Assembly (NCBI GenBank): GCA_044342325.1
Contig: JBIIPZ010000043.1
Coordinates: 1-21,360 of the forward strand
Length of the DNA stretch: 21,360 nucleotides
From: Terrimicrobiaceae bacterium
GTDB lineage: Bacteria > Verrucomicrobiota > Verrucomicrobiia > Chthoniobacterales > Terrimicrobiaceae
Direction: 5' to 3'
In this document: positions 1-13,189 of the stretch, one piece after another
Layout of the letters: each line of letters begins with the position of its first letter
Position numbering within the stretch: the stretch's first letter is position 1
Notes under the pieces: model-generated
The model's database searches: none
What the model was told of the DNA's origin: nothing
What the model saw: only the letters and a program-made list of their open reading frames with translations
Translations under genes and position numbers: made by a program

Positions 1-103
1 CATCCAGTGCGATGAAGAGTTGCGAGACGACTTCCATGAGAGAGCCATAGGCTATTTCCAAGAAGTGCCCGAAATCGGCGTCGGAATTCCGCCCCGAGCC
101 TTC
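1..103 (-). pseudogene. Four-helix-bundle (23S rRNA IVP-like) gene, 3' part, running off the window edge
   Basis: Manual translation from 103 down gives EGSGRNSDADFGHFLEIAYGSLMEVVSQLFIALD, the typical second half of this family; it continues the fragment at 381-533. Confidence 0.85.
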
Positions 104-380
104 CCTCTGGCGCGTAGCTAGCAGTGCTATTCCACAAGCCATTTTTGTCTTTTACCTCTGGATTTTTTCAATTGCCGTTCGAAATATCTTGCCTGCTCTC
201 TGGTTGGAAATTGCTCAATTTTGAGTTCACTCCAAGGTCCATCGCAAGCGGTAGAATGGACGGCATTTTTGTTGTGCAGATGGAGTCGCCTCGAAAAATC
301 GCTCGTTTGTCCGATGTAAATTCGTCCAGACTGATTGCGGATGGCATAGACACAAAACATCAGGCACCTACGGGGCGGAG
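104..380 (-). mobile_element. 277-bp insertion carrying a GIY-YIG gene, splitting the four-helix-bundle gene between ...SSNIA and EGSG...
   Basis: Removing 104-380 rejoins ATC GCG|GAA GGC and restores the conserved NIAEG motif in frame. Confidence 0.8.
127..360 (-). CDS. Small GIY-YIG nuclease family protein
   Basis: VYAI...IYIGQTSDFSRRL..HN...GPW...A..FE..LK matches the stand-alone GIY-YIG pattern. Confidence 0.85.
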   Translation of the reverse strand: MFCVYAIRNQSGRIYIGQTSDFSRRLHLHNKNAVHSTACDGPWSELKIEQFPTREQARYFERQLKKSRGKRQKWLVE

Positions 381-533
381 CGCGATGTTTGAACTAACCG
401 ACGTCGATGCCCGCCGGATTTGTGGTAGGAGCGCGAACTGCTCTTCCTTGGGAAATTTGCGGCTGACAGCATAGACTTGCCGATTGAACTGACGGGCGAG
501 TTGCCATGCCTCGATGCGCTCGAACCGAAATTC
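381..533 (-). pseudogene. Four-helix-bundle gene, 5' part (no in-frame ATG found)
   Basis: Manual translation EFRFERIEAWQLARQFNRQVYAVSRKFPKEEQFALLPQIRRASTSVSSNIA; the upstream frame is open to a TAA at 609-611 without an ATG. Confidence 0.8.
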
Positions 534-546
534 CCGCCTGCTTGCT

Positions 547-574
547 CTCGTCCCTCGACGCTCGTCCCTCGTCG
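547..574. repeat. Degenerate 7-bp tandem repeat, about 4 units (CTCGTCC/CTCGACG)
   Basis: ctcgtcc ctcgacg ctcgtcc ctcgtcg at the 5' end of the four-helix-bundle gene. Confidence 0.8.
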
Positions 575-663
575 CCTGCTTTGCTACATCACTAATTATT
601 TGACATAATTAACAGAATTTCAAAATTTTATAGGAACACCCTTAAATTCACCCAGAAAACCAT

Positions 664-861
664 TCAACTTGCGAGGGCGTAGTCGATGGCTTTGGGGTTA
701 TCGACCCTTTTGCTGGCATTGAGGATTTCAAGTCCGACAATATTTCCTTCGATATCATAATCTAAAATAACGCCGGGCTTGGCTTCGTCGCTTTCTTCCA
801 CCGCTGCATCGCTCAAAATGATCGTGAGCGCATCAACTTCGGGATCATAGGTTACTTTCAT
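664..861 (-). CDS. DUF2283 family protein (putative antitoxin)
   Basis: MKVTYDPEVDALTI...GVILDYD..GNIVGLEILNASK is the characteristic pattern; overlaps the upstream partner by ATGA. Confidence 0.9.
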   Translation of the reverse strand: MKVTYDPEVDALTIILSDAAVEESDEAKPGVILDYDIEGNIVGLEILNASKRVDNPKAIDYALAS

Positions 862-1121
862 ATTTTCCAGTATTTTTTGATTTTTGATGTTCGATAAATT
901 GTCACGATATTTTTAGGATTCGCGGCGTCGTTGATAATCGCTCGCAAGAGACCTGGCTTGCCATTCTTCGTGCTCAGGCATTGGTAGCACACAAGTCCTC
1001 CATGCGCTTCCACTATTTGGTCCGGATGGTTCATGAGCGATTCGACCTGCTCAAGAGAAATTTGACGCCGAGCCATTTCCTCAACGGCATGCTTGGAGAT
1101 AGTGAAGTTCAAACCCAGCAA
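858..1121 (-). CDS. DUF4258 family protein (putative toxin partner of DUF2283)
   Basis: ISKHAVEEMARRQI...IVTIYRTSKIKKYW; this family is commonly paired with DUF2283. Start codon uncertain. Confidence 0.8.
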   Translation of the reverse strand: MLGLNFTISKHAVEEMARRQISLEQVESLMNHPDQIVEAHGGLVCYQCLSTKNGKPGLLRAIINDAANPKNIVTIYRTSKIKKYWKI

Positions 1122-1161
1122 TTTTTTACTCGTGACCCGCTACAGCCGACTCCGTCGGCTT

Positions 1162-1242
1162 CCCATACCAAAGCGACTTCTTCAGCGACCGACAGAATTT
1201 CTTCGAAACGCCTTCGACTCGGACTAGGACTTCGTCGTCCGA
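1162..1242 (-). pseudogene. Truncated Wzt N-terminus, second subfamily (no ATG)
   Basis: Manual translation SDDEVLVRVEGVSKKFCRSLKKSLWYG, a recognisable N-terminus of polysaccharide ABC ATP-binding proteins; ends at the hairpin 1144-1160. Confidence 0.75.
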
Positions 1243-1244
1243 GT

Positions 1245-1292
1245 GAGTAACGGGTGGCGGGTAACGGGTGGCGGGTGAAGAAGTAACGGGTG
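1245..1292. repeat. Degenerate 7-bp repeat tract (GTAACGG/GTGGCGG on +)
   Basis: gagtaacgggtggcgggtaacgggtggcgggtgaagaagtaacgggtg. Confidence 0.8.
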
Positions 1293-1293
1293 C

Positions 1294-1515
1294 CTAGTTT
1301 GTTGCCAGGGCTTTCGATCGGACTTGGATAATGGAGGCGAGCGCCCGCAATGAATCATTCACCGATTTTGAGTCCGGAAATGCTTCCGCGATATTGGGCT
1401 CCAACAAAATCAAATTCGTGCCTTGCTTGTAGAGCTTGGTGTATTTGCCTTTGACACCGGAGCTGAAATCATACTCGGCGAGCATCGTTTCCTTTTTAGC
1501 TTTTGGCTTTTTCAT
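1294..1515 (-). CDS. BrnA-like antitoxin
   Basis: MLAEYDFSSGVKGKY...LEPNIAEAFPDSKSVNDSLRAL; overlaps the BrnT gene. Confidence 0.8.
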   Translation of the reverse strand: MKKPKAKKETMLAEYDFSSGVKGKYTKLYKQGTNLILLEPNIAEAFPDSKSVNDSLRALASIIQVRSKALATN

Positions 1516-1780
1516 ATTGCTTTCTTTCTTTACGGCTTGCTGGCCGCGCGCTGGTGATTCTCAAATGGTTGCCTCTTTCCGTATGGATAACAATAAGCAA
1601 ACGCGCATTTTGTGACATTCCCATGGTAATGAATCTAGGTTCTTTTTGCGAATGCTTGAAGTCCGGGATGGTGATCGATTGCTCATCTCCAAAGATTGTG
1701 CCTGCTTCGGTGAATGCAACTCCATGTTTGATGGCATTTGCGGTCGCTTTATTATCATCCCACTCGAAAATTAGGCCCAT
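1496..1780 (-). CDS. brnT: BrnT family toxin (DUF497)
   Basis: FEWDDNKATANAIKHGVAF.EA..IF.D...HS..EPRF...RITSARPASRKERKQYE; ATG at 1780. Confidence 0.92.
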   Translation of the reverse strand: MGLIFEWDDNKATANAIKHGVAFTEAGTIFGDEQSITIPDFKHSQKEPRFITMGMSQNARLLIVIHTERGNHLRITSARPASRKERKQYEKAKS

Positions 1781-1788
1781 GGAGTTTT

Positions 1789-1830
1789 TTGCCAAATCTG
1801 CAAGTCTTCAAAGTTTTCTGCAAATCCCAT
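1789..1830 (-). pseudogene. 14-codon 5' stub of a four-helix-bundle gene, near-identical to the start of 3901-4260
   Basis: Encodes MGFAENFEDLQIWQ, then runs out of frame into brnT. Confidence 0.9.
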
Positions 1831-1860
1831 ACTAGTTACCGGTTACGCGTTACCCGCAAC
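1831..1860. repeat. Degenerate 7-bp repeat tract (GTAACNN on -) before the four-helix-bundle stub
   Basis: actagttaccggttacgcgttacccgcaac, paralleling 4261-4290. Confidence 0.75.
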
Positions 1861-1944
1861 ATCGCTCCAAGCGAGAAGTTCATTTTCTCTCATTTTTGAC
1901 AGAACTCACTTCTGCGGAATGCGATCCCATTCGAGCTTTGATCT

Positions 1945-2196
1945 TCAATCGGCAAGGCTGATATCGACCACCATCACTTTGCGCACTGGAGAATCCACCC
2001 AGTAGGTGATGGCGTATTTGCCGACAATTTTGATCTGAAGTTCCCGCAGCGTAGCATCTTTTTCCACAAAGTCACCGAGTTGGTCTGGTTGACGCTTGAG
2101 GCTTTCTGGGAATTCGAATATTAACCGTCTTTGCAAACCTGCCCTCGGCACAACTCCCTGCAGAAGGTCCGAGTGCACAAAAACCTCATAGTTCAT
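1945..2196 (-). CDS. RelE/ParE-like toxin (putative)
   Basis: 83 aa, MNYEVFV...VGKYAITYWVD..VRKVMVVDI resembles the RelE C-terminal pattern; TGATG overlap with the upstream gene. Confidence 0.6.
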   Translation of the reverse strand: MNYEVFVHSDLLQGVVPRAGLQRRLIFEFPESLKRQPDQLGDFVEKDATLRELQIKIVGKYAITYWVDSPVRKVMVVDISLAD

Positions 2197-2399
2197 CAGG
2201 CGCCTTGGCCCTTGGTTCGAATTGCGAAGTCTTCCAAGCTGACCCAATTTCTCTCGTCGCGATCCTGCACTCGGCGTTCTAGAGACGAGGACTCCTGAGA
2301 ATTATTCTTGCGCCACAAGCTGAACAGCAAAGCGGATAACTCTTTCTGCTCTTTGAAGGACAGTGCAACTACTTCTTTTTTTAATTCCTCATAGCTCAT
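2196..2399 (-). CDS. Putative addiction-module antitoxin
   Basis: 67 aa, MSYEELKKEVVALSFKEQKELSALL...WVSLEDF; coupled to the RelE-like gene. Confidence 0.6.
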   Translation of the reverse strand: MSYEELKKEVVALSFKEQKELSALLFSLWRKNNSQESSSLERRVQDRDERNWVSLEDFAIRTKGQGA

Positions 2400-2502
2400 A
2401 ATCTTTAATATCTCTGATTGGTTTTTTATTTCAAATCGAATTTTGCCAAAGCATTTTTTTGGGAATTGCGCGTCGCCGACGGCCAAGACTTTTATCCGAG
2501 GA

Positions 2503-2672
2503 ATTCACATCATGAGCCAGCGACCCCGCCCCCACTTCCCCGAGACGGTAGAGCTTGTGACCCACGCAGTGGGGAACCTGCGCGGGAGACTACCGAATGT
2601 AGCTTTTAGGGTGAGACGCCGAGGGCAAGGCGCGAATCAAATGTTTTCAACGCGAATTACAGTGTCGGACAT
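2503..2672 (-). pseudogene. Truncated wzt 5' end interrupted by a palindromic element
   Basis: MSDTVIRVENI [insert ~2560-2640] KLYRLGEVGAGSLAHDVN; homology then stops. Confidence 0.9.
2560..2640 (+). mobile_element. Palindromic ~81-bp insertion element, degenerate copy
   Basis: Closely matches 7597-7679 (ACCCA...GCGCGGGAGACTACCGAA...GTGAGACGCCGAGGGCAAGGCGCGAATCAA), with damaged hairpins. Confidence 0.8.
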
Positions 2673-2721
2673 AGGGCGGAAGAAGTAGCGTGTGGCGAGG
2701 GGCGAGGCTGGCGGTCGCGCC

Positions 2722-2916
2722 TCAGGCTGCGGCCAATACTTTCGAATCGATCAAATGGGCCAGGGCACTCACCAATTGGTTCTTTTGCTTAACAATAGAT
2801 TGTCCGTGATGGACTTTCTTCTCCAAGCAGATGCCCAGAGTTGCTTCACTCACGCGGATCAGTCGATTTCCCTCGGCCAAGCGGGTCATTTCGATTTTTA
2901 GGTTTTCGATTTTCAT
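2722..2916 (-). CDS. Small hypothetical protein, partner of 2921-3277
   Basis: 64-aa ORF with ATG 4 bp after the upstream stop; no family recognised. Confidence 0.6.
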   Translation of the reverse strand: MKIENLKIEMTRLAEGNRLIRVSEATLGICLEKKVHHGQSIVKQKNQLVSALAHLIDSKVLAAA

Positions 2917-2920
2917 AAGG

Positions 2921-3277
2921 TTAAAATCCCATTTTTTCAATCCAACTCAACATAATTTCTGGCGTTGGGTATCCATACTGCAGATAAGCCTCTTGAGCCA
3001 ATTTTTCAAATCCCGATTCATTCAACTCCATGACGGATTCCGGTGGTTCATCCAACGCGACAGCAAGAGACTCCAAAACTTCATGATAAATCGAGATGCC
3101 TACCTCCCTCTCGTTCAAATCGCTGGAAATCTGAATCGTGATTCGCTTTCCTTCAATAATGGCTTTCGCGAGCGCAGGTCTGCCGATCGGATCGAGCATT
3201 TTTCCCTCAACCCCGACAATCTCCGAAATGAAGTGCCCGGATGGAAAATTGAGATTCGCAAAAGCCTCAAAGTTCAT
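2921..3277 (-). CDS. Hypothetical protein with a HExxE (zincin/ImmA-IrrE-like) motif
   Basis: ISIYHEVLE preceded by ITIQISSDLNERE; ATGA overlap with the upstream ORF. Confidence 0.65.
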   Translation of the reverse strand: MNFEAFANLNFPSGHFISEIVGVEGKMLDPIGRPALAKAIIEGKRITIQISSDLNEREVGISIYHEVLESLAVALDEPPESVMELNESGFEKLAQEAYLQYGYPTPEIMLSWIEKMGF

Positions 3278-3543
3278 TTCGTGTCCTCCACCCGAATCAC
3301 CACATCACGATCACTCATCCCCCCCCAACTTGAAGTCACAGATTGTGATTTCAAGTTTGAGACCTCCTCGGCCGTGAGTTGAAACATGAAGCTGCTTGGA
3401 AATCTTGCAGGGTTTCGTTTAACCGCTTGATTCAAAGCGCGTGTTTCAACGCCGTAAATCTCAGCAAGGTCCGAAGCGAGCATAACCTTCTCACCCCTTA
3501 TGGAGTGAATTCGGCTTTGGAGCAGTTGTAATTCTTGCGACAT
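3274..3543 (-). CDS. Truncated ORF6N-domain protein fused in frame to a wzt start
   Basis: IRGEKVMLASDLAEIYGVETRALNQAVKRNPARFP..FMFQLTAEE...SSWGG is ORF6N, cut before the usual PYAFTE segment and followed by MSDRDVVIRVE. Confidence 0.85.
   Translation of the reverse strand: MSQELQLLQSRIHSIRGEKVMLASDLAEIYGVETRALNQAVKRNPARFPSSFMFQLTAEEVSNLKSQSVTSSWGGMSDRDVVIRVEDTK
3285..3318 (-). pseudogene. 11-codon wzt 5' stub (MSDRDVVIRVE)
   Basis: 31/34 nt identical to the start at 6894; all three differences are synonymous third positions. Confidence 0.9.
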
Positions 3544-3550
3544 TTTAGTC

Positions 3551-3578
3551 AAAAAGCAAGTTGCATCATTTGCTTTTT
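3551..3578. promoter_or_regulatory. Inverted repeat, possible operator upstream of the ORF6N gene
   Basis: AAAAAGCAA-N10-TTGCTTTTT ending 7 bp before the ATG at 3543. Confidence 0.4.
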
Positions 3579-3588
3579 ATCCGAAGTG

Positions 3589-3678
3589 ATTTACATCATG
3601 CGCGGGCGACCCAGTCCCCACCTAACCGAGACGGTAGAGCTTGCATAAATTTTCAACGCGAATAACGGTGTCGGACAT
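3589..3678 (-). pseudogene. Truncated wzt 5' end with a nonsense codon
   Basis: MSDTVIRVENLCKLYRLG*VGTGSPAHDVN. Confidence 0.9.
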
Positions 3679-3701
3679 GGGAAGAGGCGAAGAAGTAACG
3701 G

Positions 3702-3774
3702 GTGGCGAGTGGCGAGTGGCGAGTGGCGAGTGGCGAGTGGCGAGTGGCGAGTGGCGAGTGGCGAGTGGCGAGTG
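3702..3774. repeat. Perfect tandem repeat (GTGGCGA)x10 plus GTG
   Basis: Ten exact units counted from 3702 to 3771; degenerate units continue to about 3822. Confidence 0.97.
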
Positions 3775-3900
3775 CGGAGGCGCCTGCGGCGCTTGTAGCG
3801 GGTAACTGGTGGCGGGTGGCGAGATTTCCGCCTTCGGCGGATTGCTTTTGACCATTAACCCGCAACTCGCTACTCGTTACCGCCAGCTTTGCTGGCGCGG

Positions 3901-4260
3901 TTATTGTTGCGAGCGCAATTTTGAGGCGAGTGCACCGATCGATTTGGAGAGGTCTTTGTATTCGGAGCGTAGTCGCTCGGCAGCAGATTGGCAAAGGTAG
4001 GAGCGATCTTCAGCAAGATAGAGCATGGAGCGAACTTCGCCGGATGAGCCTTTTGAAGGGTCCAGAAAGTGTGCAAAGTCTTTCTTCGTCCGTCGCTCAA
4101 AGCCTTCCGCTATGTTATTCATGACCGAGACAGACGCTCGCTGAATTTGGCTACGGAATTCGAAATCGCGGATTTTCTCAAAGGCGTCGTAAATCTCATT
4201 GGTCAAAACGCGTGAACGTTGCCAAATTTGCAAGTCTTCAAAATTTTCCGCAAATCCCAT
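3901..4260 (-). CDS. Four-helix-bundle protein (23S rRNA IVP-like, TIGR02436 type)
   Basis: FEDLQIWQ...DFEFRSQIQRASVSVMNNIAEGFERRTKKDFAHFL..SKGSSGEVRSMLYLAED. Confidence 0.95.
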   Translation of the reverse strand: MGFAENFEDLQIWQRSRVLTNEIYDAFEKIRDFEFRSQIQRASVSVMNNIAEGFERRTKKDFAHFLDPSKGSSGEVRSMLYLAEDRSYLCQSAAERLRSEYKDLSKSIGALASKLRSQQ

Positions 4261-4307
4261 ACTCGTTACCAGTTACTCGTAACTCGCTACAGCCGACTCC
4301 GTCGGCT
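4261..4307. repeat. Degenerate 7-bp tract plus the AGCCGAC-TCC-GTCGGCT hairpin; block shared with 1127-1160
   Basis: TTACTCGT(A/G)AC(T/C)CGCTACAGCCGACTCCGTCGGCTT occurs at both sites. Confidence 0.85.
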
Positions 4308-4383
4308 TTAGTGTTCATTTTCTCTCATTTTCGCGAAATTGCTTCGCGATCAACTTTTTTAAGAATTTCAGAATGTCTGCTTT

Positions 4384-5061
4384 TTAAAATCCAAATCTTT
4401 CGAAAATTTCACTCCCGGGCTTACCTACAACCACATCGATCGGAAACAACTTGCCGGTGAAGTCGCGCAAGATGTTTTTGAGATTTGCATCCAAGACCAT
4501 CAAATCGAGTTCCTTGTTATAGAATGCCGCGACATCGGCGACGGAGCTTTTTTGAAACCCGAGCGACTCGAAGTATTCAACCACATCGGCTTCCGTAACG
4601 TCGGCCAAATCGCCGCTTTCGGCAATCCATGGTTGTGAAGTGACGATGCGGACATTACCTTCGGTGGCGAGGATGCCTTGGAGGAGTATATTGTCGCCAA
4701 AGATTTGGTTGTGATGAATGAGGCGCTGAAGATATTCGCTTGGTAGCGCGCTTTGGCCTTCACCGATCAAGGAGTGCCCGAACCGGCCGTCTCGCGTGAC
4801 CTTGATGGCACATTGGCTGAATTGATCAAAAAAGACCTCGTGCTCGGCACCGGATGAAACCGGCTTGAATTTCTGCAAGAAATCTTCGCTCAGGCAGTAG
4901 CCAGATCGTGTGGCCCACTCCGCGAAGATGACGACTTCGTGTTGGAAACTCCATCGCCGCGAGCGTCCACCCGGCGGCACTGCTCCAAGGCTTTCTCGTA
5001 GGAAGTCCAGGGCTGATTGCAGCGGGCTTTCCGGGTTTCCTCGGCTTTTTTCAGAATCCAT
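4384..5061 (-). CDS. Putative kinase of the polyvalent-protein type (Kinase-PolyVal-like)
   Basis: Motifs SGAEHEV, AIKVT, EYLQRL..HNQIFGD, VTSQPWI, DANLKN, FPID; ATG at 5061 preferred. Confidence 0.7.
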   Translation of the reverse strand: MDSEKSRGNPESPLQSALDFLRESLGAVPPGGRSRRWSFQHEVVIFAEWATRSGYCLSEDFLQKFKPVSSGAEHEVFFDQFSQCAIKVTRDGRFGHSLIGEGQSALPSEYLQRLIHHNQIFGDNILLQGILATEGNVRIVTSQPWIAESGDLADVTEADVVEYFESLGFQKSSVADVAAFYNKELDLMVLDANLKNILRDFTGKLFPIDVVVGKPGSEIFERFGF

Positions 5062-5090
5062 TCGATTGAAAGTTTCATAGGACAACAATA

Positions 5091-5121
5091 TTGACTATGC
5101 GATGGGGACTATGGTTGTCAA
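5091..5121 (-). promoter_or_regulatory. Possible promoter/operator for the kinase gene
   Basis: TTGACA on the minus strand; TTGAC...GTCAA inverted ends enclosing two GACTATG direct repeats. Confidence 0.35.
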
Positions 5122-5181
5122 CCTTTGGCTCTGAGCATGGCTGGCGACATCCTTCATTTTGCGCAGGCATTTTTTTTGGAA

Positions 5182-5208
5182 TTCAACGCGAATTACGGTT
5201 TCAGACAT
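5182..5208 (-). pseudogene. 9-codon wzt 5' stub (MSETVIRVE)
   Basis: ATGTCTGAAACCGTAATTCGCGTTGAA matches the starts at 2672, 3678 and 7711; preceded by a heptamer tract. Confidence 0.85.
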
Positions 5209-5215
5209 GGGAAGT

Positions 5216-5247
5216 AGAGTCGAGGGACGAGGGGCGAGAGTCGAGGG
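5216..5247. repeat. Degenerate 7-bp tract (GAGTCGA/GGGACGA on +)
   Basis: gagtcga gggacga ggggcga gagtcga ggg. Confidence 0.8.
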
Positions 5248-5278
5248 CTGGCGGAAGGTGTGGAGTTGCCAAACCGCG

Positions 5279-5617
5279 TCAGGATGCTGTGTATTTTTTT
5301 AGAAGGCCGCCGAGTTCTACTGCATCGCGGCTTGCGATTCCCCAAATCAAATTCGTATCAACTCCAAAATAGTCATGCACAATACGATGCCTCAATCCAA
5401 CAATCCGGGGCCATGGAATGTCTGGATAGAGTTTACGCGCTTCATCATCCATTTGCCGTGCCGCTTCCCCCACTATTTCCAAGTTGCGGGTCACAGCATC
5501 GATGGTTTTTTGATCATTCAAAAAGGTATCCGCATCCATTCCCTGGATGTAGGCGGAAATCCGTTCTAATGCTGTGTAGATGTCTTGAACGAGAATAGCT
5601 GTATCCCTTTTAGGCAT
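5279..5617 (-). CDS. HEPN/DUF86 ribonuclease toxin (HepT-like)
   Basis: DAVTRNLEIVGEAA...IPW..IVGLRHRIVHDYFGVD..LIW with an RX4H motif. Confidence 0.93.
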   Translation of the reverse strand: MPKRDTAILVQDIYTALERISAYIQGMDADTFLNDQKTIDAVTRNLEIVGEAARQMDDEARKLYPDIPWPRIVGLRHRIVHDYFGVDTNLIWGIASRDAVELGGLLKKYTAS

Positions 5618-5897
5618 AAGTTACATCCGGTTCGATCGTCTTCCATCTGGCGGGGTCGATGGCTCTCCGTGAAACAACATCAACAGGCACGCCAAAGGCT
5701 TGTTCGATCTCCGTGGCCAAATCAACAAATTGCAAACCTATTGAAGGATCCATATCTACGAGGACATCGACATCACTGTCGGGTCGCGCCTCGTTTCTCG
5801 CCATGGAACCGAAAATTCCGAGCTTGTGGACTTTATATCTTTTCCCCAAATCGGGCTTCAAACGCCCTAGAATCGATAGCGCAATGGATCGGTTCAT
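5610..5897 (-). CDS. Minimal nucleotidyltransferase antitoxin (MntA-like)
   Basis: LGIFGSMARNEARPDSDVDVLVD...VDVVS; paired with DUF86. Confidence 0.93.
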   Translation of the reverse strand: MNRSIALSILGRLKPDLGKRYKVHKLGIFGSMARNEARPDSDVDVLVDMDPSIGLQFVDLATEIEQAFGVPVDVVSRRAIDPARWKTIEPDVTYA

Positions 5898-6055
5898 TTC
5901 TTAATATCGGCGATTGAATACTCGGGTTCATCATCGCCATAACTCATGGCAAAATTTTTGAGGGCAACATCTGTCCATTCCCTGTTTTCACGAGCTTCTT
6001 CTTGTCGCCCTAGAGCAAATTGGACAAACCAGTCAGTGAGTTTTATCGCGCTCAT
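5894..6055 (-). CDS. 53-aa antitoxin-like small protein, not in the ORF track
   Basis: Manual translation MSAIKLTDWFVQFALGRQEEARENREWTDVALKNFAMSYGDDEPEYSIADIKK; ATGA overlap with the MNT start. Confidence 0.6.
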   Translation of the reverse strand: MSAIKLTDWFVQFALGRQEEARENREWTDVALKNFAMSYGDDEPEYSIADIKK

Positions 6056-6130
6056 AATTTGAAATTAGTGTTTGATGAACTGAGATTCAATGCTTTTTCG
6101 TGAGCCCTAGCACGGAGCCATTGATGGGAA

Positions 6131-6165
6131 GAGGCGTCGAGCGTCCAGGGCCGAGAGTCGAGAGC
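6131..6165. repeat. Degenerate 7-bp tract of the GAGTCGA family
   Basis: gcgtcga gcgtcca gggccga gagtcga gag. Confidence 0.7.
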
Positions 6166-6187
6166 ATCCGGTTAAAATGGGATTGAA

Positions 6188-6220
6188 CCCAGCCCCATTA
6201 TGCCCAATCAGTCCCAGGCA
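6188..6220 (-). pseudogene. Isolated Wzt Walker-A fragment (CLGLIGHNGAG)
   Basis: Matches the GECLGLIGHNGAGKST segment of Wzt proteins, cut before KST. Confidence 0.7.
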
Positions 6221-6306
6221 TTGATGCCGTCTCCTCCCGGAGTCCGGCACCTTGGTTGCACCAAGGCATTTCTTCGAAATCTCTTTTTCGGACCGTCCCA
6301 GGTTCC

Positions 6307-6894
6307 TCAATTCCCCGCGGCGTAGTTCGAAGCTGACGTCCTTGACGGCGAAGAACTCGCCGTCCCGAAGCGAAGCTTCGGGAGTAACGAGTCCAGAAGA
6401 AGATTTCTTACCACACCCAGGCGGCTGGGCGGCTGGGCGGCCGCTCGGGAGACTGCCGAAGGCAGCCCCGCAGGGGCGAGACGAGAGGGATCGAGCGAGT
6501 CAAATTTCACGGATTCAGAATCTGAACCAGTTTGGTCCCCGGAAGCGCGGGAGTCATTCGCGGAGCGAATGGAAGCGAGTTTTTCGGAGTCCATCTGCAA
6601 GCCTGCTTGCGAGTGGCCTTCCAAAAACTCCGCCGAATCAGCACGCTGATTCCCGCCCGCGCCAACCTCGGTGCTCTCTGTGTCCTCTGTGGTTAAATTT
6701 TTCTTGGAGCTCGCCTGCTTCGCAGGCTTCGTCCGATCATTCACCTCCCCGATCTTGAGATACGGATCCTCCTTCCCACGAAGCCGGTGCCACCAGCGGT
6801 TCACATCATGCGCCAGCGAACCCGTCCCCACTTCACCGAGGCGGTAGAGCTTGGAGATGCCCTCCACCCGAATTACAACATCCCGATCACTCAT
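6307..6894 (-). pseudogene. Longest wzt 5' stub (56 codons, 6727-6894), continuing as a repeat-derived open frame
   Basis: MSDRDVVIRVEGISKLYRLGEVGTGSLAHDVNRWWHRLRGKEDPYLKIGEVNDRTK is a typical Wzt N-terminus; no WAL..V.F, Walker B or ABC signature follows. Confidence 0.9.
6415..6503 (+). mobile_element. Palindromic insertion element, divergent copy
   Basis: ACCCAGGC...CGGGAGA CTGCC-GAA-GGCAG CCCC-GCA-GGGG CGAGACG...GCGAGTCAA. Confidence 0.75.
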
Positions 6895-7514
6895 TTTCCG
6901 CGCTTGATGACATGTTTGAACTTGAGAACCGCGAAATTCAACTCGATTGAAGTCTCAGTGTCGCTCGTGTAGAGTTCGTCCTCGAACAGTTCGGAAACCA
7001 GTTCGCCGCTGCGTTGCAGCAGTGGCTTTTGAGCGGCTTCTTCCTTTGTGGCCGATAATGTCGTGATTGTCCGCGAAAGCTCGCGGATTTTTGCAAAAGT
7101 TTGCCGACCTCGCGCCCGCTCGTGTCGCCCTGCGGGCTGCCGAAAGGGCAGGCTTCCCCGCGCCATCCCAAGGCGCCGGGGTTCGATGATCGTGAATGTC
7201 GCTTCCGTGGCTTGCGGGCTTTTCAGGATTGTTGCCAGCATGTAGAGCCCCTTTTCAGGAAAGGCTGTAGGGGGTTTCACTTTGCCACCCCGTTTTGAAG
7301 TCGAAAATTTCGACTTCAAACCAACCCACTCATCTTTTGATATTTGTATGAGGTATCCTTCGGGAAATTTCTCTGGATTGTTTTTGACAGCTTCGTTGAT
7401 TCGTTTGGTTTCCACTCCATAGATCAACGCCACATCTTGATCCAAGAGCACTTTCTGACCTCGTATTTCCAAGATGCTTTCTTGGATTATTTTTACATCA
7501 AGCGGCTTATTCAT
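6891..7514 (-). CDS. ORF6N-domain protein with a 27-aa in-frame insertion
   Basis: IRGQKVLLDQDVALIYGVETKRINEAVKNNPEKFPEGY...EKGLYMLATILKS...IIE[insert]TFAKIRELSR...IELNFAVLKFKH. Confidence 0.9.
   Translation of the reverse strand: MNKPLDVKIIQESILEIRGQKVLLDQDVALIYGVETKRINEAVKNNPEKFPEGYLIQISKDEWVGLKSKFSTSKRGGKVKPPTAFPEKGLYMLATILKSPQATEATFTIIEPRRLGMARGSLPFRQPAGRHERARGRQTFAKIRELSRTITTLSATKEEAAQKPLLQRSGELVSELFEDELYTSDTETSIELNFAVLKFKHVIKRGK
7101..7181 (-). mobile_element. Palindromic 81-bp element inserted in frame in the ORF6N gene
   Basis: On -: CCCCGGC..TTGGGA..GCGCGGGGAAGC CTGCC-CTTTC-GGCAG CCC-GCA-GGG CGACACG...GGCAA; GC-rich within an AT-rich gene. Confidence 0.8.
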
Positions 7515-7579
7515 ATTAGGATTATTTTGATTTTTCCTGGCCTTTACCCACCCACACTGGCGATGAGGTGGGGCATGGC

Positions 7580-7711
7580 AAGGCGGTAGAACTTGGACCC
7601 AGGCAAGGTTGGGAACCTGCGCGGGAGACTACCGAAGGTAGCCCGTAGGGTGAGACGCCGAGGGCAAGGCGCGAATCAAATGTTTTCAACGCGAATAACG
7701 GTGTCGGACAT
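7580..7711 (-). pseudogene. Truncated wzt 5' end interrupted by a palindromic element
   Basis: MSDTVIRVENI [insert] SKFYRL; removing the insert restores ATT TCC AAG. Confidence 0.9.
7597..7679 (+). mobile_element. Palindromic ~83-bp insertion element
   Basis: ACCCAGGC..TTGGGA..GCGCGGGAGA CTACC-GAA-GGTAG CCC-GTA-GGG TGAGACG...GCGAATCAA. Confidence 0.85.
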
Positions 7712-7765
7712 AGAGCGGAAGAAGTAGCGTGGGCGAGTGGCGGATTACTGCAAAGAGAAACTTTT

Positions 7766-8284
7766 TTATTTAATCCCAAGACCCTTAGCCCAATTCAACC
7801 ATGTTTGTGTCAAGCCATGGTGCTTTAGAATTTCCGTGAATTTGGGCAACTGAAAATCTTGCAGTTCATAAAGATAGACCACACGAGCTCGATCTTTGGG
7901 GCGCCCTACTGTGAGAGCGATGGCCGCCAAGTATTCAGGTGTCATGACCCGAATGGTATGTCCATCCCACTGCAAGACATCTGCGTTATTGACAGCCTCA
8001 ATCTCAAGCTCGCTGGATGCCGCCAGAAACTGCACTGGCATGCCGTGGATAACAATGCCTTCTTCGTCAAATTCGGAGAAGCCCAACTCGGAAAGCTTTT
8101 TGAAAATAGGTTCCAAGCTGACTAAAAACGAGCCTTCCGGAACATTCAAAAAGCAAAAAACATCGATGTCCCGGGTAGCCAGCGGTTCTCCATGAAAACC
8201 TGCAGCTGTTGCTCCGCCTATTGCGTATTTCCCAACAACACCTGCATTGAGAAGCTGCTCTAAAACATCACAAACCTTTTGCAT
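7766..8284 (-). CDS. Nucleotidyltransferase-fold protein
   Basis: YAIGGATAAGFHGEPLATRDIDVF (GG...DxD) and C-terminal GRPKD. Confidence 0.8.
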   Translation of the reverse strand: MQKVCDVLEQLLNAGVVGKYAIGGATAAGFHGEPLATRDIDVFCFLNVPEGSFLVSLEPIFKKLSELGFSEFDEEGIVIHGMPVQFLAASSELEIEAVNNADVLQWDGHTIRVMTPEYLAAIALTVGRPKDRARVVYLYELQDFQLPKFTEILKHHGLTQTWLNWAKGLGIK

Positions 8285-8468
8285 GTCGCTTGATTTTCTC
8301 TAATTCCAATGTCTCTAAAATTGTTTGCCCCAAAAGCGCTACTTTTTCACCGATGGGCAGATTTCTTTGTTTTTGCCTCCACATGGTTTTTTCACGCAAC
8401 CACAAAAGCCCTTCGGAGTTGCATAGCGAATGAGCCGCAATGTTTCGATTTTTGATTTTTTTCTCCAT
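8268..8468 (-). CDS. Small hypothetical protein, partner of the nucleotidyltransferase
   Basis: 66 aa, basic, contains LPIGEKV; overlaps the downstream gene by 17 bp. Confidence 0.6.
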   Translation of the reverse strand: MEKKIKNRNIAAHSLCNSEGLLWLREKTMWRQKQRNLPIGEKVALLGQTILETLELEKIKRHAKGL

Positions 8469-8499
8469 TGAAAACAAGGCTTTGAGGCAAAGGCCCAAC

Positions 8500-9363
8500 C
8501 TACACAGTGTCCATGAAGGTGCGCTCGACTTTTTTGAACATGACGATGCCGAGGAAAAGCAGCACGGCAGTAATGGCAGCGGCGATTCCGAGGCCTTGCC
8601 ATGGGATTGCGCCGCCGAGGAAGATGGCGCGGAAGCTCTCGATGACGGGGGCCATGGGGTTGAAATTCATGAGGAAAGCGTATTTTTCAGGAACTATGCT
8701 GGCCGGGTAGATGATGGGGGTGGCATACATGGCGAGTTGGACTCCGAAACCGACGAGGAACGTGAAATCGCGGTATTTTGTAGTGAGCGAGGAGATGATG
8801 ATACCAGCACCGAGGCCGAGCAAGGCCATGATTCCAAGAAGGATGGGAGCAAGGAGGAAAACCATAGGCCAATCGGTATGGAGATCGGCTCCTTTGATGG
8901 AGTAGAAAGCGAGAAACGCAAAAAAGAGGAGAAATTGGATGCCAAACTGGATGAGGTTTGAAATGACAATCGAAAGCGGCGTGACGAGTCTGGGAAAGTA
9001 GACTTTGCCGAAGATGCCGGCATTCGCCACAAAGGTGGAGGAGGTTTTTGTGAGGCAGGTGGAAAAGTAGTTCCACGGAGTAATGCCGGCGAGGTAGAAA
9101 AGCATGGGAGGAAGGCCATTGGTGGGCAACTTAGCCAGACCACTGAAGATCACTGTGAAAATGAGGGTGGTCAGGATGGGTTGGACAAAAAACCAGAGTG
9201 GGCCAAGGACGGTTTGCTTGTAAACGGAGACAAAGTCCCGCCGCACGAACATCCAAAGCAGATCGCGGTAGTGCCAGACATCGCGGAGCTGCAAATCCCA
9301 CCAGCGTGTGGTGGGGTTGAGCACCATGTCCCAATTTTCGTTTTCGGTGTTGGAGGATGTCAT
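8500..9363 (-). CDS. wzm: Polysaccharide ABC exporter permease (ABC-2 type)
   Basis: LRDVWHYRDLLWMFVRRDFVSVYKQTVLGPLWFFVQP...KVYFPRL...KYRD...YATPIIYP...FKKVERTFMDTV; ATG at 9363 chosen because it lies downstream of the regulator stop. Confidence 0.95.
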   Translation of the reverse strand: MTSSNTENENWDMVLNPTTRWWDLQLRDVWHYRDLLWMFVRRDFVSVYKQTVLGPLWFFVQPILTTLIFTVIFSGLAKLPTNGLPPMLFYLAGITPWNYFSTCLTKTSSTFVANAGIFGKVYFPRLVTPLSIVISNLIQFGIQFLLFFAFLAFYSIKGADLHTDWPMVFLLAPILLGIMALLGLGAGIIISSLTTKYRDFTFLVGFGVQLAMYATPIIYPASIVPEKYAFLMNFNPMAPVIESFRAIFLGGAIPWQGLGIAAAITAVLLFLGIVMFKKVERTFMDTV

Positions 9364-9394
9364 AAGGTGTTGGATTGCGTGAAGAAAAGGCGAC

Positions 9395-9967
9395 TCAGAA
9401 TTTGCCGGCGAGGACTTTGATGAGGGGGAGGGCTTTTCCAAAAAACTTATACCAGCCGGCGATCTGGCCGAGGCGGGATTTTTCGAAGTGGGCGGTGGGA
9501 GAGGCCGGGTCGATACTGGATTCGAGGACGCTCAGGCGGCTGGGGCCGTTTTCGAGGTGGGGATCGATGCGGTCGCGGAGGTAGCCGCTGGCGAGCTTGC
9601 GCAGGCTGGTCTCGGCGGTGAAGTGTTCTTTTCGGATGCCAGGCAGGTAAACTTGGTTCACGGCACCGAGTGAACGGAGCCAGCGCAGGCCTTCACTTGC
9701 GGATCCGCGACTAAGTTGCAGGCGGGTCTGCACATCGTCGAGCGAGAGAGGTTCGGGCGTGCTGAAGAGGAGGCCGTAGATTTCACCGATGGAACGGGGC
9801 AGCGAGAGGGCTCCGAAGACATGGATAAAAAGTGCGACGGACTGGAGCTGAAAGGCGCTGAGTGGAGGTGGCGGCGATATCTGGAGATTCCCTCTCCGTG
9901 CAGATTGGGAGCTTTTTACAGACAAGCTGCCGCCCTTGGTAAAAGGGGTGTCTTTTACCGGCGGCAT
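9395..9967 (-). CDS. GbsR/MarR family transcriptional regulator (start uncertain)
   Basis: LPRSIGEIYGLLF.TPEPLSLDDV..RLQLSRGSASEGLRWLRSLGAV....RKEHF.AE winged helix. Confidence 0.85.
   Translation of the reverse strand: MPPVKDTPFTKGGSLSVKSSQSARRGNLQISPPPPLSAFQLQSVALFIHVFGALSLPRSIGEIYGLLFSTPEPLSLDDVQTRLQLSRGSASEGLRWLRSLGAVNQVYLPGIRKEHFTAETSLRKLASGYLRDRIDPHLENGPSRLSVLESSIDPASPTAHFEKSRLGQIAGWYKFFGKALPLIKVLAGKF
9938..9959. promoter_or_regulatory. Inverted repeat, candidate operator
   Basis: GGTAAAAG-N6-CTTTTACC at the head of the regulator-wzm operon. Confidence 0.45.
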
Positions 9968-10785: not shown

Positions 10786-10810
10786 ACTGAAAACTGAAAA
10801 CTGAAAACTG
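10786..10810. repeat. (ACTGAAA)x3.5 heptamer repeat
   Basis: actgaaa actgaaa actgaaa actg between gatB and the TVP38 gene. Confidence 0.85.
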
Positions 10811-12329: not shown

Positions 12330-13189
12330 GGTGTCTTTTTGGAAGAGGTGGGATTTTGCTTCGGTGGCATGGCGTAATCGAGAGCTTTTTCGAGATCGAG
12401 TGCCATGATGAGCTTTTGCAACGAAGGATCGGTGGCGGCATTCAGAACCGTGCGGCTCTGGATGAGTGCGATGAAATTTTTATTCTCCGCCGATTGCACC
12501 ACGACGGGATCCTGCATCAAGGCCTGAATGCGTGGGTGAGTGACGATTTCCTGCACGCCGGGATAATCGAGAAAACGCAAGAGCGCGTCTTGGTTTTTCG
12601 TCAACTGCCCAATGCGGGTAATGTTCTCGTAGGCTTGTGAAGGGAGAATGTCGACAGACTCCACAATCTCACCGACGGGGCCCATTTCGAGGGAATCCTT
12701 GAGCATGGCAAATGTGCGGGCCGAAGCGGGGGCGTCCTGGGATTTTTGCCCGGCCATGCCGGATTTCGCAACGGCGCCCGAAGTGCGTATGATGGAGACC
12801 GCTCCCCAGAGAATGAAGAGGCCGGTGAGAAGTCCGAAAATGGCGCCACCGGCTCCAAAGGTCCAACGGACGAGACCGGGGGGCTGGTGCGAGGTTCGTT
12901 TAAAAAGGACAGCGCCGAGGAAGAGGCAGACACCGAGTGTGACGAGAGCCACAGCGCCTCCAGCAATCAATCCCGCCAAGAATGCGAGACCAGGCAAAAC
13001 CAGGCCGATGACAGCTCCAACGGTCTGCCCCACCAGCATGCCGAGGAGGCCCGAAGCGACGAAGGCACCGAAATGCAGCCCCCCGCGAATGAGCCCACGC
13101 CGCCAGCCGGCGTAGATTTCCCAGAGCATGAAAACGGCCGCGCTGTAGAGCAGGACATTCTGCCAAAATGGAGAGCCGAGGTCGGACAT
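12326..13189 (-). CDS. CvpA family membrane protein
   Basis: YAGWRRGLIR motif, four TM segments, FGAGGAIFGLLTG; overlaps the gatB start. Confidence 0.7.
   Translation of the reverse strand: MSDLGSPFWQNVLLYSAAVFMLWEIYAGWRRGLIRGGLHFGAFVASGLLGMLVGQTVGAVIGLVLPGLAFLAGLIAGGAVALVTLGVCLFLGAVLFKRTSHQPPGLVRWTFGAGGAIFGLLTGLFILWGAVSIIRTSGAVAKSGMAGQKSQDAPASARTFAMLKDSLEMGPVGEIVESVDILPSQAYENITRIGQLTKNQDALLRFLDYPGVQEIVTHPRIQALMQDPVVVQSAENKNFIALIQSRTVLNAATDPSLQKLIMALDLEKALDYAMPPKQNPTSSKKTP

Follow-up and report, generated by a model that had tools for sequence, protein, structure and literature searches.

An array of predicted toxin–antitoxin and defence cassettes separated by wzt front fragments next to wzm in a freshwater Terrimicrobiaceae bacterium

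Introduction

The genes wzm and wzt, coding for the permease and the ATPase of a polysaccharide exporter, are as a rule adjacent, and a locus in which they are not raises the question of what has come between them and by what means. Such a locus is found in a Terrimicrobiaceae bacterium (Verrucomicrobiota) whose kin are freshwater members of the family. It occupies the left part of contig JBIIPZ010000043.1 (assembly GCA_044342325.1), of which positions 1 to 21,360 were analysed (the whole stretch of 21,360 nucleotides, nt, is called the window). Here the permease gene is present, while of the ATPase, which when complete comprises the ABC_tran and Wzt_C domains, the window holds front fragments only. 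Between wzm and the left edge lie about 12 cargo modules with seven front fragments of wzt as separators, and every credible gene from position 8498 down to 1 is located on the minus strand, 3' of wzm, so that the co-orientation of the cargo, noted in a preliminary description of the sequence, is borne out.

With about even confidence, the region is read here as a hypervariable toxin–antitoxin and defence islet between wzm and wzt, built and reshuffled by general recombination and not by a dedicated integrase. A further, distinctly more tentative proposal is that the conserved front of wzt would act as a recombinase-free cassette platform: a portable homology site allowing the capture, retention, reshuffling and co-transcription of cassettes, with selection for the exporter leading to the accretion of front pieces only and addiction to the cassettes serving as an upward ratchet. 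Such a platform would be a natural form of serial insertion-duplication, doing the job of an integron with neither integrase nor attC.

Sequences compared

The window was set against ten loci of its close clade (L001–L010), taken from metagenome-assembled genomes (MAGs) named Terrimicrobiaceae, Spartobacteria, Verrucomicrobia or Chthoniobacter, to which its Wzm is 85–95% identical, the Terrimicrobiaceae and Spartobacteria loci included. Another 31, more distant loci (L011–L041) formed the baseline for wzm–wzt spacing. Fragments are numbered after P0030, an intact Wzt of the clade with 520 amino-acid residues. The wzt starts counted in relatives are matches at E ≤ 1e-5, weaker ones being additional. 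The stubs are 27–100 nt long, and allele classes and linker type were used for their comparison.

Front fragments of wzt in the window

Truncated starts of wzt had been described at 7711, 6894, 5208, 3678, 3318, 2672 and about 1242, and all seven are there, on the minus strand. A 27-nt start motif recurs with at most three mismatches at 7711, 5208, 3678 and 2672 (none expected from 100 shuffles), and a second allele is represented at 6894 and 3318 by a 34-nt start motif (again none expected). With the 56-codon copy as a query, tblastn gives E values of 1.6e-35 at 6894, 1.7e-9 at 3678 and 6.8e-7 for the distal part of the 2672 copy, and weak matches at 3318 (0.044) and 1242 (0.084). These are true front pieces of the gene, as proposed; the length of 9 to 56 codons originally assigned to them needs revision, several being longer or internally deleted. 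The exporter gene and the fragments are the following:

8500–9441, minus strand: wzm, ABC-2 permease of the polysaccharide exporter, intact (Pfam ABC2_membrane, E 1.6e-17)
7560–7741, minus strand: wzt fragment 1, native 5' leader, codons 1–11, an 81-nt repeat element and codons 12–18
6107–6894, minus strand: wzt fragment 2, a pseudogene with type-1 residues 1–158 and a type-2-like scrap
5100–5260, minus strand: wzt fragment 3, heptamer leader (5216–5248), codons 1–9 (5182–5208) and residues 303–321 (5128–5184)
3583–3800, minus strand: wzt fragment 4, ten CTCGCCA heptamers (3702–3774), leader and codons 1–34 with an in-frame stop
3277–3318, minus strand: wzt fragment 5, 12 codons of the MSDRDVV allele, fused to a remnant of ORF6N type B
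2436–2716, minus strand: wzt fragment 6, leader, codons 1–11, repeat element, codons 15–32 and residues 295–313 (2436–2492)
1163–1293, minus strand: wzt fragment 7, heptamer leader and about 27 codons of a type-2 wzt start, with no ATG kept

The repeat element of fragment 1 (7598–7678) lies in frame and has TGA as its first codon; that of fragment 6 is matched at 2572–2639 and belongs to repeat family D4 (124 nt, 94%). The part of fragment 2 at 6430–6894 corresponds to residues 1–158 of P0030, including the clade-specific linker (81%, tblastn E 9e-75), and the Walker-A scrap noticed earlier is indeed present, extending over 6167–6412 as a frameshifted, type-2-like piece of the nucleotide-binding domain (35%, E 2.8e-5 in tblastn with P0030). 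The copies at 5208 and 2672 are front halves of wzt with an internal deletion. Fragment 4 ends at a junction common to L004, L007 and L010. Fragment 7 is 97% identical to L007 8627–8725, located 5' of the L007 wzm, and comes from a paralogous transporter, wzm2/wzt2, seen in L007–L009.

The break points fall at codons 9, 12, 18, 33–34, about 158, 313, about 321 and 332, and this variability argues against a single recombination core; an insertion process anchored at the gene start, as first envisaged, does not fit a range from codon 9 to about 332. A 79–81-nt insertion is shared by the 7711 and 2672 copies, in which it is placed at the same codon, and is found also in four stubs of L005, L007 and L010. 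One disabling insertion common to two stubs implies that dead stubs were themselves copied or converted.

All these pieces come from one end of the gene. When the rear domain of Wzt was sought with 109 queries in all loci, the intact distant genes were found and there was no match in the window or in L001–L010, so that all wzt pieces in about 50 kb of arrays derive from the front two-thirds. The longest fragments reach residue 313 (where the RelE-like pair follows), about 321–325 (followed by the kinase in the window and by FitA/PIN in L006) and 332 (in L010); allelic homology ends there.

Intact Wzt and the usual gene order

Intact Wzt proteins of the clade, found outside the window, are 500–545 residues long. 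In 66 of them column identity is 0.85–0.99 for residues 1–60 and 161–320, and 0.17–0.36 beyond about residue 340. Their alleles carry the same start variants as the stubs, MSDRDVV included; the stubs do differ in sequence, as had been said, and fall into several allele types, each known also from intact genes. A low-complexity linker of about 100 residues follows residue 56 (about 57–160 in P0030). It has no counterpart in more distant Verrucomicrobia and comes in at least two sequence types, freely combined with the N-terminal alleles, which points to recombination within the wzt gene.

Adjacency of the two genes, assumed to be the norm from the outset, is confirmed by the distant loci. In 17 of the 31 loci, wzt begins at most 156 nt from the wzm stop. 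Exactly one start is present in 23, two of these lying at 291 and 543 nt and four at 1.2–6.6 kb, and more than one start in none; the remaining eight have no wzt match, six of them through a contig end at that point. The inserts between wzm and wzt in L019, L024, L026 and L031 were considered and rejected as examples of the same phenomenon: they consist of long open reading frames (ORFs) with no stubs, and look like sugar-metabolism enzymes, as judged by reading the sequences with no family search.

Several observations bear on where the complete gene is to be found in the close clade. In L006 a remnant from the rear of the wzt front is followed by FitA/PIN, a leader and a wzt whose reading frame continues for 228 codons until the contig ends; it shares 98% identity with a full-length protein. 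The intact wzt coding for P0030, which has the allele type seen at 6894, is on a contig of 74,233 nt, and as the L007 contig has the same length, this gene probably lies there, beyond the array. Two intact Wzt proteins extend 5' into the same leader that follows the nucleotidyltransferase (NTase) cassette in the window; the order NTase, leader, complete wzt thus exists in other strains.

Arrays in related genomes

Arrays with multiple fragments are confined to the close clade, with two starts in L004, three in L007, four in L008 and two in L010, and more at the DNA level. They are rich in toxin–antitoxin genes (ParE, PIN, BrnT, DUF4258/DUF2283, TumE and others). Blocks of the window recur in them: the stretch from wzm to the first stub in L005, L008 and L010 (81–91% over 1.7 kb), the RelE-like block in L001, L007 and L008 (87%), and 3642–2684, spanning a stub, a truncated ORF6N, a stub and the HExxE pair, in L007 (94% over 963 nt). 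Their arrangement differs. The RelE-like pair stands before BrnTA and DUF4258 in the window and after them in L007 and L008, and since cassette order differs between genomes, growth has not been simply polar; the suggestion that the oldest units lie near wzm finds no support in this.

Traces of exchange between fragments are also seen. L007 lacks the 4 kb between the 7711 and 3678 copies (window 7581–3642) and has a hybrid stub whose front, with the repeat element, is that of the 7711 copy and whose rear and junction are those of the 3678 copy. A PIN module of L010 has a duplicated segment of stub plus ORF6N on its two sides. The 7711 stub is 95.4% identical to a non-positional stub of L007 (13180) and 91.6% to the positional one, as gene conversion would give.

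The expectation that relatives would differ by whole units of cargo plus a wzt start holds in part: homologous arrays differ by blocks often ending in fragments, and there are other end points too. The synteny end points form 25 clusters. DNA derived from wzt, which makes up 25% of the array, contains 11 of them (binomial p 0.03), or 14 when repeats of the four-helix-bundle gene are counted with it (p 0.006); the other 11 lie elsewhere, including breaks of four loci right at the wzm stop. Likewise, the unit formerly proposed, cargo plus a fresh start displacing a stub, is visible in both ORF6N units, in which a displaced stub (18 or 33–34 codons) is followed by cargo ending in an ATGA stop/start overlap with the start of a new wzt allele (MSDRDVV...; window, L004 and L007); it does not extend to every stub, for not each is a displaced working start. 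ORF6N recurs beside wzt starts in the window, L004, L007 and L010. The new start allele after ORF6N (window 6894 and 3318; L004, L007) is a candidate surrogate 5' end, the gene that it would restore being incomplete in the copies examined.

Accretion is moreover not confined to wzt, contrary to the initial view, since the start of a four-helix-bundle gene and a second transporter are also involved. A block of wzm2 (an ABC-2 permease of 285 residues), a Phd/PIN pair and a fragmented type-2 wzt is located at L007 6968–9471, L008 7548–9958 and L009 7923–9996, between a regulator gene and wzm1; its wzt carries the same repeat element, and the window has no such block. In this block a paralogous exporter is split in the same manner. 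At L008 2006–6900, 5' of the regulator gene, wzm1 is present a second time (81% identical to the window at the DNA level), accompanied by wzt fragments of its own, a ParE module and a transposase of IS630-like type, which indicates that whole units of wzm plus fragments are repeated too.

Origin of the array

Neither integrase nor transposase had been noticed in the window, and none was found in its ORFs on scanning. A tyrosine or serine recombinase is absent from the 25 ORFs of the array and its flanks, from the 10 right-hand ORFs of the window and from 92 + 48 array ORFs of relatives; L008 contains insertion sequence (IS) transposases only (IS3, IS4 and IS630-like). The lack of visible attC sites was upheld by a crude scan for RYYYAAC...GTTRRRY boxes 30–130 nt apart (positions 1–8500, both strands), in which no pair was found and 1.5 were expected from shuffles. 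No recurrent inverted repeats were found at cassette boundaries. The inverted heptamer arrays flanking BrnTA were tried as cassette ends and rejected: they are leaders of neighbouring genes, and such arrays also flank ordinary genes in L039. Convincing minus-strand terminators between the cassettes were not found, and promoter-like sites number 8 with 7.3 expected, an uninformative scan; the cassettes may be expressed by read-through. There is no sign of the dedicated accretion system first postulated over general recombination.

An islet produced by general recombination could have arisen as follows. The front two-thirds of wzt is better conserved than any other DNA at the margin of this surface-sugar locus, which varies between strains, and duplicative events would have their right end inside it; candidates are a single crossover with a circle carrying cargo and a wzt front, unequal exchange, and homology-anchored illegitimate joining of incoming DNA. 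Each event would leave a truncated front copy 5' and a complete gene 3'. Under selection for exporter function, events breaking the sole complete wzt would be lost, which would explain why front pieces alone accumulate. Toxin–antitoxin cargo would resist replacement, and cassettes would consequently pile up. Recombination or gene conversion between fragments would then delete, duplicate and reorder them, and neutral internal deletions together with insertions of small repeat elements would reduce the fragments to stubs.

Some findings weigh against this scenario. A complete wzt was seen neither in the window nor at the far ends of the arrays examined, where contigs or the 10-kb flanks end first; the longest copy, that of L010, extends to about residue 332, and the genes next to its end are on the opposite strand. 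Breakpoint enrichment in wzt-derived DNA is modest (the p of 0.03 given above) and arises partly from repeat-versus-repeat matches. In four relatives the break coincides exactly with the wzm stop, and in others it falls within cargo genes (8083, 3394 and 1721), so the fragments are not the sole exchange points. Homologous recombination alone does not account for the first junctions between fragments and cargo. Finally, all the sequences are contigs of short-read MAGs from mixed populations.

One rival is a decaying locus, in which wzt has been lost and a neutral junkyard of duplications, insertion sequences, repeat elements and selfish toxin-antitoxin genes has gathered, unrelated to exporter function. 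The absence of an intact wzt inside any array examined, the stops, frameshifts and repeat-element insertions of the stubs, the disabling insertion common to two of them, and the IS3, IS4 and IS630-like insertions and two wzm1 copies of L008 would all suit it. It is nevertheless rather unlikely: wzm is intact and conserved, the clade has 66 intact Wzt, some of them encoded on contigs as long as 101 kb and one probably on that of L007, cargo in L006 is followed by the open wzt described above, and random decay would leave rear pieces as well as front ones. The ORF6N units recall another possibility, that of tandem miniature integrative elements targeting the 5' end of wzt and providing a surrogate start, in the manner of dusA or prfC elements, with the integrase acting in trans or deleted. 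Their likeness is to IMEVchUSA3, which supplies dusA with a new promoter and a 35-residue N-terminus (61% identity). This we regard as doubtful, because no integrase is encoded by the 25 + 10 window ORFs or the 140 array ORFs of relatives, the break points range from codon 9 to 332, the units measure only 0.5–1.5 kb and dead stubs are copied.

A dedicated new capture system, with the wzt start or the heptamer leader as attachment site and an unrecognised recombinase, perhaps a small recurrent protein such as ORF6N, would account for co-oriented cassettes devoid of convincing internal terminators, for heptamer arrays directly 5' of most stubs and for the repeated presence of ORF6N beside wzt starts. 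It is improbable, however: heptamers are general in the lineage (at L039 sugar genes and in the wzt linker), ORF6N matches a defence-candidate family, the junction positions are irregular, and ORF6N, a DNA-binding domain, is not known to have catalytic activity. Least credible, and hardly to be entertained, is a chimeric contig assembled from reads of co-existing strains joined at repeats. Many related contigs do end at or near repeats (L003 in a stub, L009 and L040 in wzm, and the window itself in a repeated four-helix-bundle gene). Yet the same junctions occur in independent MAGs with different isolate names, and no exact dispersed repeat in the array is longer than 51 nt.

If the wzt front does serve as a homology platform, cassette arrays can arise and stay dynamic by general recombination, with a piece of a conserved gene as the attachment site, and the search for reservoirs of defence and toxin–antitoxin genes widens beyond integrons and integrase-bearing islands; such reservoirs would also be linked to surface-polysaccharide loci under phage selection. 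The same process may be the reason that assemblies of this abundant freshwater clade stop shortly after wzm: seven of the ten closest loci have less than 2 kb beyond it, two of these ending at the last bases of the wzm match, and L003 ends in a stub. If the locus is merely decaying, it is an ordinary pseudogene graveyard.

Relation to known systems

In Campbell-type insertion-duplication, employed in suicide-plasmid genetics, a circle with a 5' gene fragment enters by one crossover and yields a truncated 5' copy, the insert and the complete gene. This product is the unit structure seen in the array. The process is known from the laboratory, plasmids and islands and not as a natural, serial way of building arrays, and no circles were observed here.

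Sedentary integrons and CALIN, the latter being by definition attC clusters with no integrase, resemble the locus as long co-oriented arrays of small, mostly promoterless, toxin–antitoxin-rich cassettes that vary between close strains. They differ from it in that IntI and attC-like sites were not found here, where the cassettes are separated by repeats that derive from a neighbouring gene. Defence islands at surface-polysaccharide hotspots are comparable in position, as PDC-S05, PDC-S09 and toxin–antitoxin genes lie here between core genes (GatB, AroC) and a strain-variable locus; literature searches returned no description, for such hotspots or elsewhere, of serial target-gene fragments between cassettes, nor of wzt-fragment arrays.

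Elements of the prfC/dusA type, among them SXT/R391, which integrates in the 5' end of prfC, leave a displaced native 5' stub and bring a new, diverged N-terminal piece by which the target gene is kept whole; the ORF6N units have a displaced stub and a new start allele. Those elements are tens of kb long, have an adjacent tyrosine integrase and use one crossover core, whereas the units here are 0.5–1.5 kb, with no integrase found and no constant core. Orphan cassette arrays of polymorphic toxin loci (Rhs, CdiA-CT/CdiI; PMC3967940) are alike in that fragments keep a conserved stretch of the main gene, that recombination swaps, displaces and re-fuses modules, and that cargo pairs stay together. 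Those arrays consist of rear tips located 3' of the main gene, while here front pieces lie 5' of it, and there is no connection between the cargo and what the fragmented gene does. Unit size, lack of an integrase and polarity thus set the array apart from both groups.

Cargo modules

The cargo is as follows:

7766–8498, minus strand: cargo 1, a 76-residue ORF and a 172-residue NTase-like protein (atlas lead to DUF2204 nucleotidyltransferase clusters, score 0.98)
6891–7514, minus strand: cargo 2, ORF6N type A, 207 residues (Pfam ORF6N, E 6.5e-29; PADLOC PDC-S05, E 8.3e-70)
5279–6055, minus strand: cargo 3, a 53-residue ORF and a predicted toxin–antitoxin pair of MNT nucleotidyltransferase and HepT (HEPN) (Pfam NTP_transf_2 and HepT-like; MNT matches PADLOC PDC-S09)
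3901–5088, minus strand: cargo 4, a Kinase-PolyVal-like protein (4384–5088; Pfam) and a four-helix-bundle protein (3901–4260; TIGR02436)
3274–3552, minus strand: cargo 5, a remnant of ORF6N type B, residues 1–78 of 172 (Pfam ORF6N, E 1.5e-25)
2722–3277, minus strand: cargo 6, the "HExxE pair", ORFs of 118 and 72 residues (no named family; weak atlas lead to IrrE/M78)
1945–2396, minus strand: cargo 7, the "RelE-like pair", ORFs of 66 and 84 residues (synteny; no family match)
1789–1937, minus strand: stub of a four-helix-bundle gene (repeat families D8 and D17) with its upstream region and 16 codons, joined to BrnT
1294–1795, minus strand: cargo 8, BrnT toxin and presumed BrnA (Pfam BrnT_toxin, E 8.9e-26; partner with no match)
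664–1121, minus strand: cargo 9, a DUF4258/DUF2283 pair (Pfam)
2–630, minus strand: four-helix-bundle gene type b, split by an insertion (Pfam); the left edge of the window lies inside this repeated gene

With BrnT, HepT/MNT, DUF4258/DUF2283, PDC-S05 and PDC-S09, the array is predicted to be a toxin–antitoxin and defence island. The labels first given to its genes are supported by Pfam for ORF6N (twice), MNT/HepT, Kinase-PolyVal, 23S_rRNA_IVP, BrnT, DUF4258, DUF2283 and GIY-YIG; no family match was obtained for BrnA or for the HExxE and RelE-like pairs, and the NTase label rests on a language-model lead, searches of Pfam, NCBIfam and PADLOC with cargo 1 having given no match. Cargo 1 adjoins wzm in the window and likewise in L005, L008 and L010; L007 has part of it. 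The stop codon of cargo 2 overlaps the ATG of wzt fragment 2. ORF6N types A and B are about 40% identical (by eye), and a full-length type B gene is found in L004. Cargo 6 is conserved with L007 and L010, and cargo 7 always follows wzt residues 295–313 (window, L001, L007 and L008). The second repeated gene start is that of the four-helix-bundle gene (1789–1937 versus 4219–4331).

The insertion in the type b gene (276 nt, 105–380) contains a GIY-YIG ORF of 77 residues (127–360) and splits the gene, a member of the 23S rRNA IVP family, exactly in its conserved NIAEG motif. Window 630–381 and 104–3 are contiguous in L007 at 16695, and the uninterrupted gene occurs twice in L007. The insert looks like a free-standing homing-type nuclease insertion and has a weak NCBIfam match to a group I intron endonuclease (E 3e-4).

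In L010 a 21-nt tandem repeat (19384–19454, 3.4 copies by Tandem Repeats Finder, TRF) lies in a longer stretch reading as SEKEN-rich repeats (ORFs 19019–19633); it is located inside the array, beside an opposite-strand pair of ImmA/IrrE-like and XRE genes.

Small repeats

The repeat element interrupting wzt fragments is 72–90 nt long, often a multiple of 3, and has a conserved central hairpin. Besides its minus-strand copies in fragments 1 and 6, a related copy occurs at 6428–6503, and others in L001, L005 and L007–L010. It is found in both orientations and, in the sequences examined, only within wzt-derived DNA. Long ORFs of L008 (15838) and L010 (15580) continue through it in frame, as do the linkers of intact Wzt P0028 and P0048, and in this it is similar to the in-frame palindromic elements of Rickettsia. 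The hairpin shows compensatory variants (CTACC/GGTAG versus CTGCC/GGCAG); folding z-scores of six copies of the 81-nt element (-0.6 to -2.8) were not convincing, and the element was rejected as a structured RNA. The window ORF6N contains a stretch of 35 extra residues (about 7076–7181) with a similar hairpin.

Tandem heptamers (CTCGCCA, CCCTCGA, CCCGTTA/CCCGCCA and ACTGAAA) stand directly 5' of start codons. Arrays of them are located in the window at 3702–3774, 5216–5248, 1247–1277, 547–575 and 10786–10810, and in L007 at 12997–13174 (up to 16 copies); one such array lies within wzt and codes for part of the linker. In L039 (12.6–18.1 kb) heptamer arrays, sometimes inverted, flank ordinary sugar genes. 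Their presence there and in the wzt linker marks them as a general feature of the lineage. Comparable TAACTGA repeats 5' of start codons are reported from Beggiatoaceae, Cyanobacteria and Bacteroidetes (PMC4679880).

Flanking region

The 9.5–21.4 kb part of the window holds core genes (DedA-like, GatB, CvpA, chorismate synthase AroC, dehydroquinase and a sugar transferase) and three tRNAs. These tRNAs, with one sub-threshold match overlapping a tRNA, were all that a search of the whole window with Rfam returned at E ≤ 1, none of them in the array. As listed, the wzm ORF begins with an N-terminal extension of 30 codons (9351–9441) that relatives do not share; in L007, L008 and L009 the segment has its match at the end of the regulator region 5' of the gene. 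Homology to relatives begins at about 9351, and the true start of wzm probably lies near 9363, 3' of the listed TTG.

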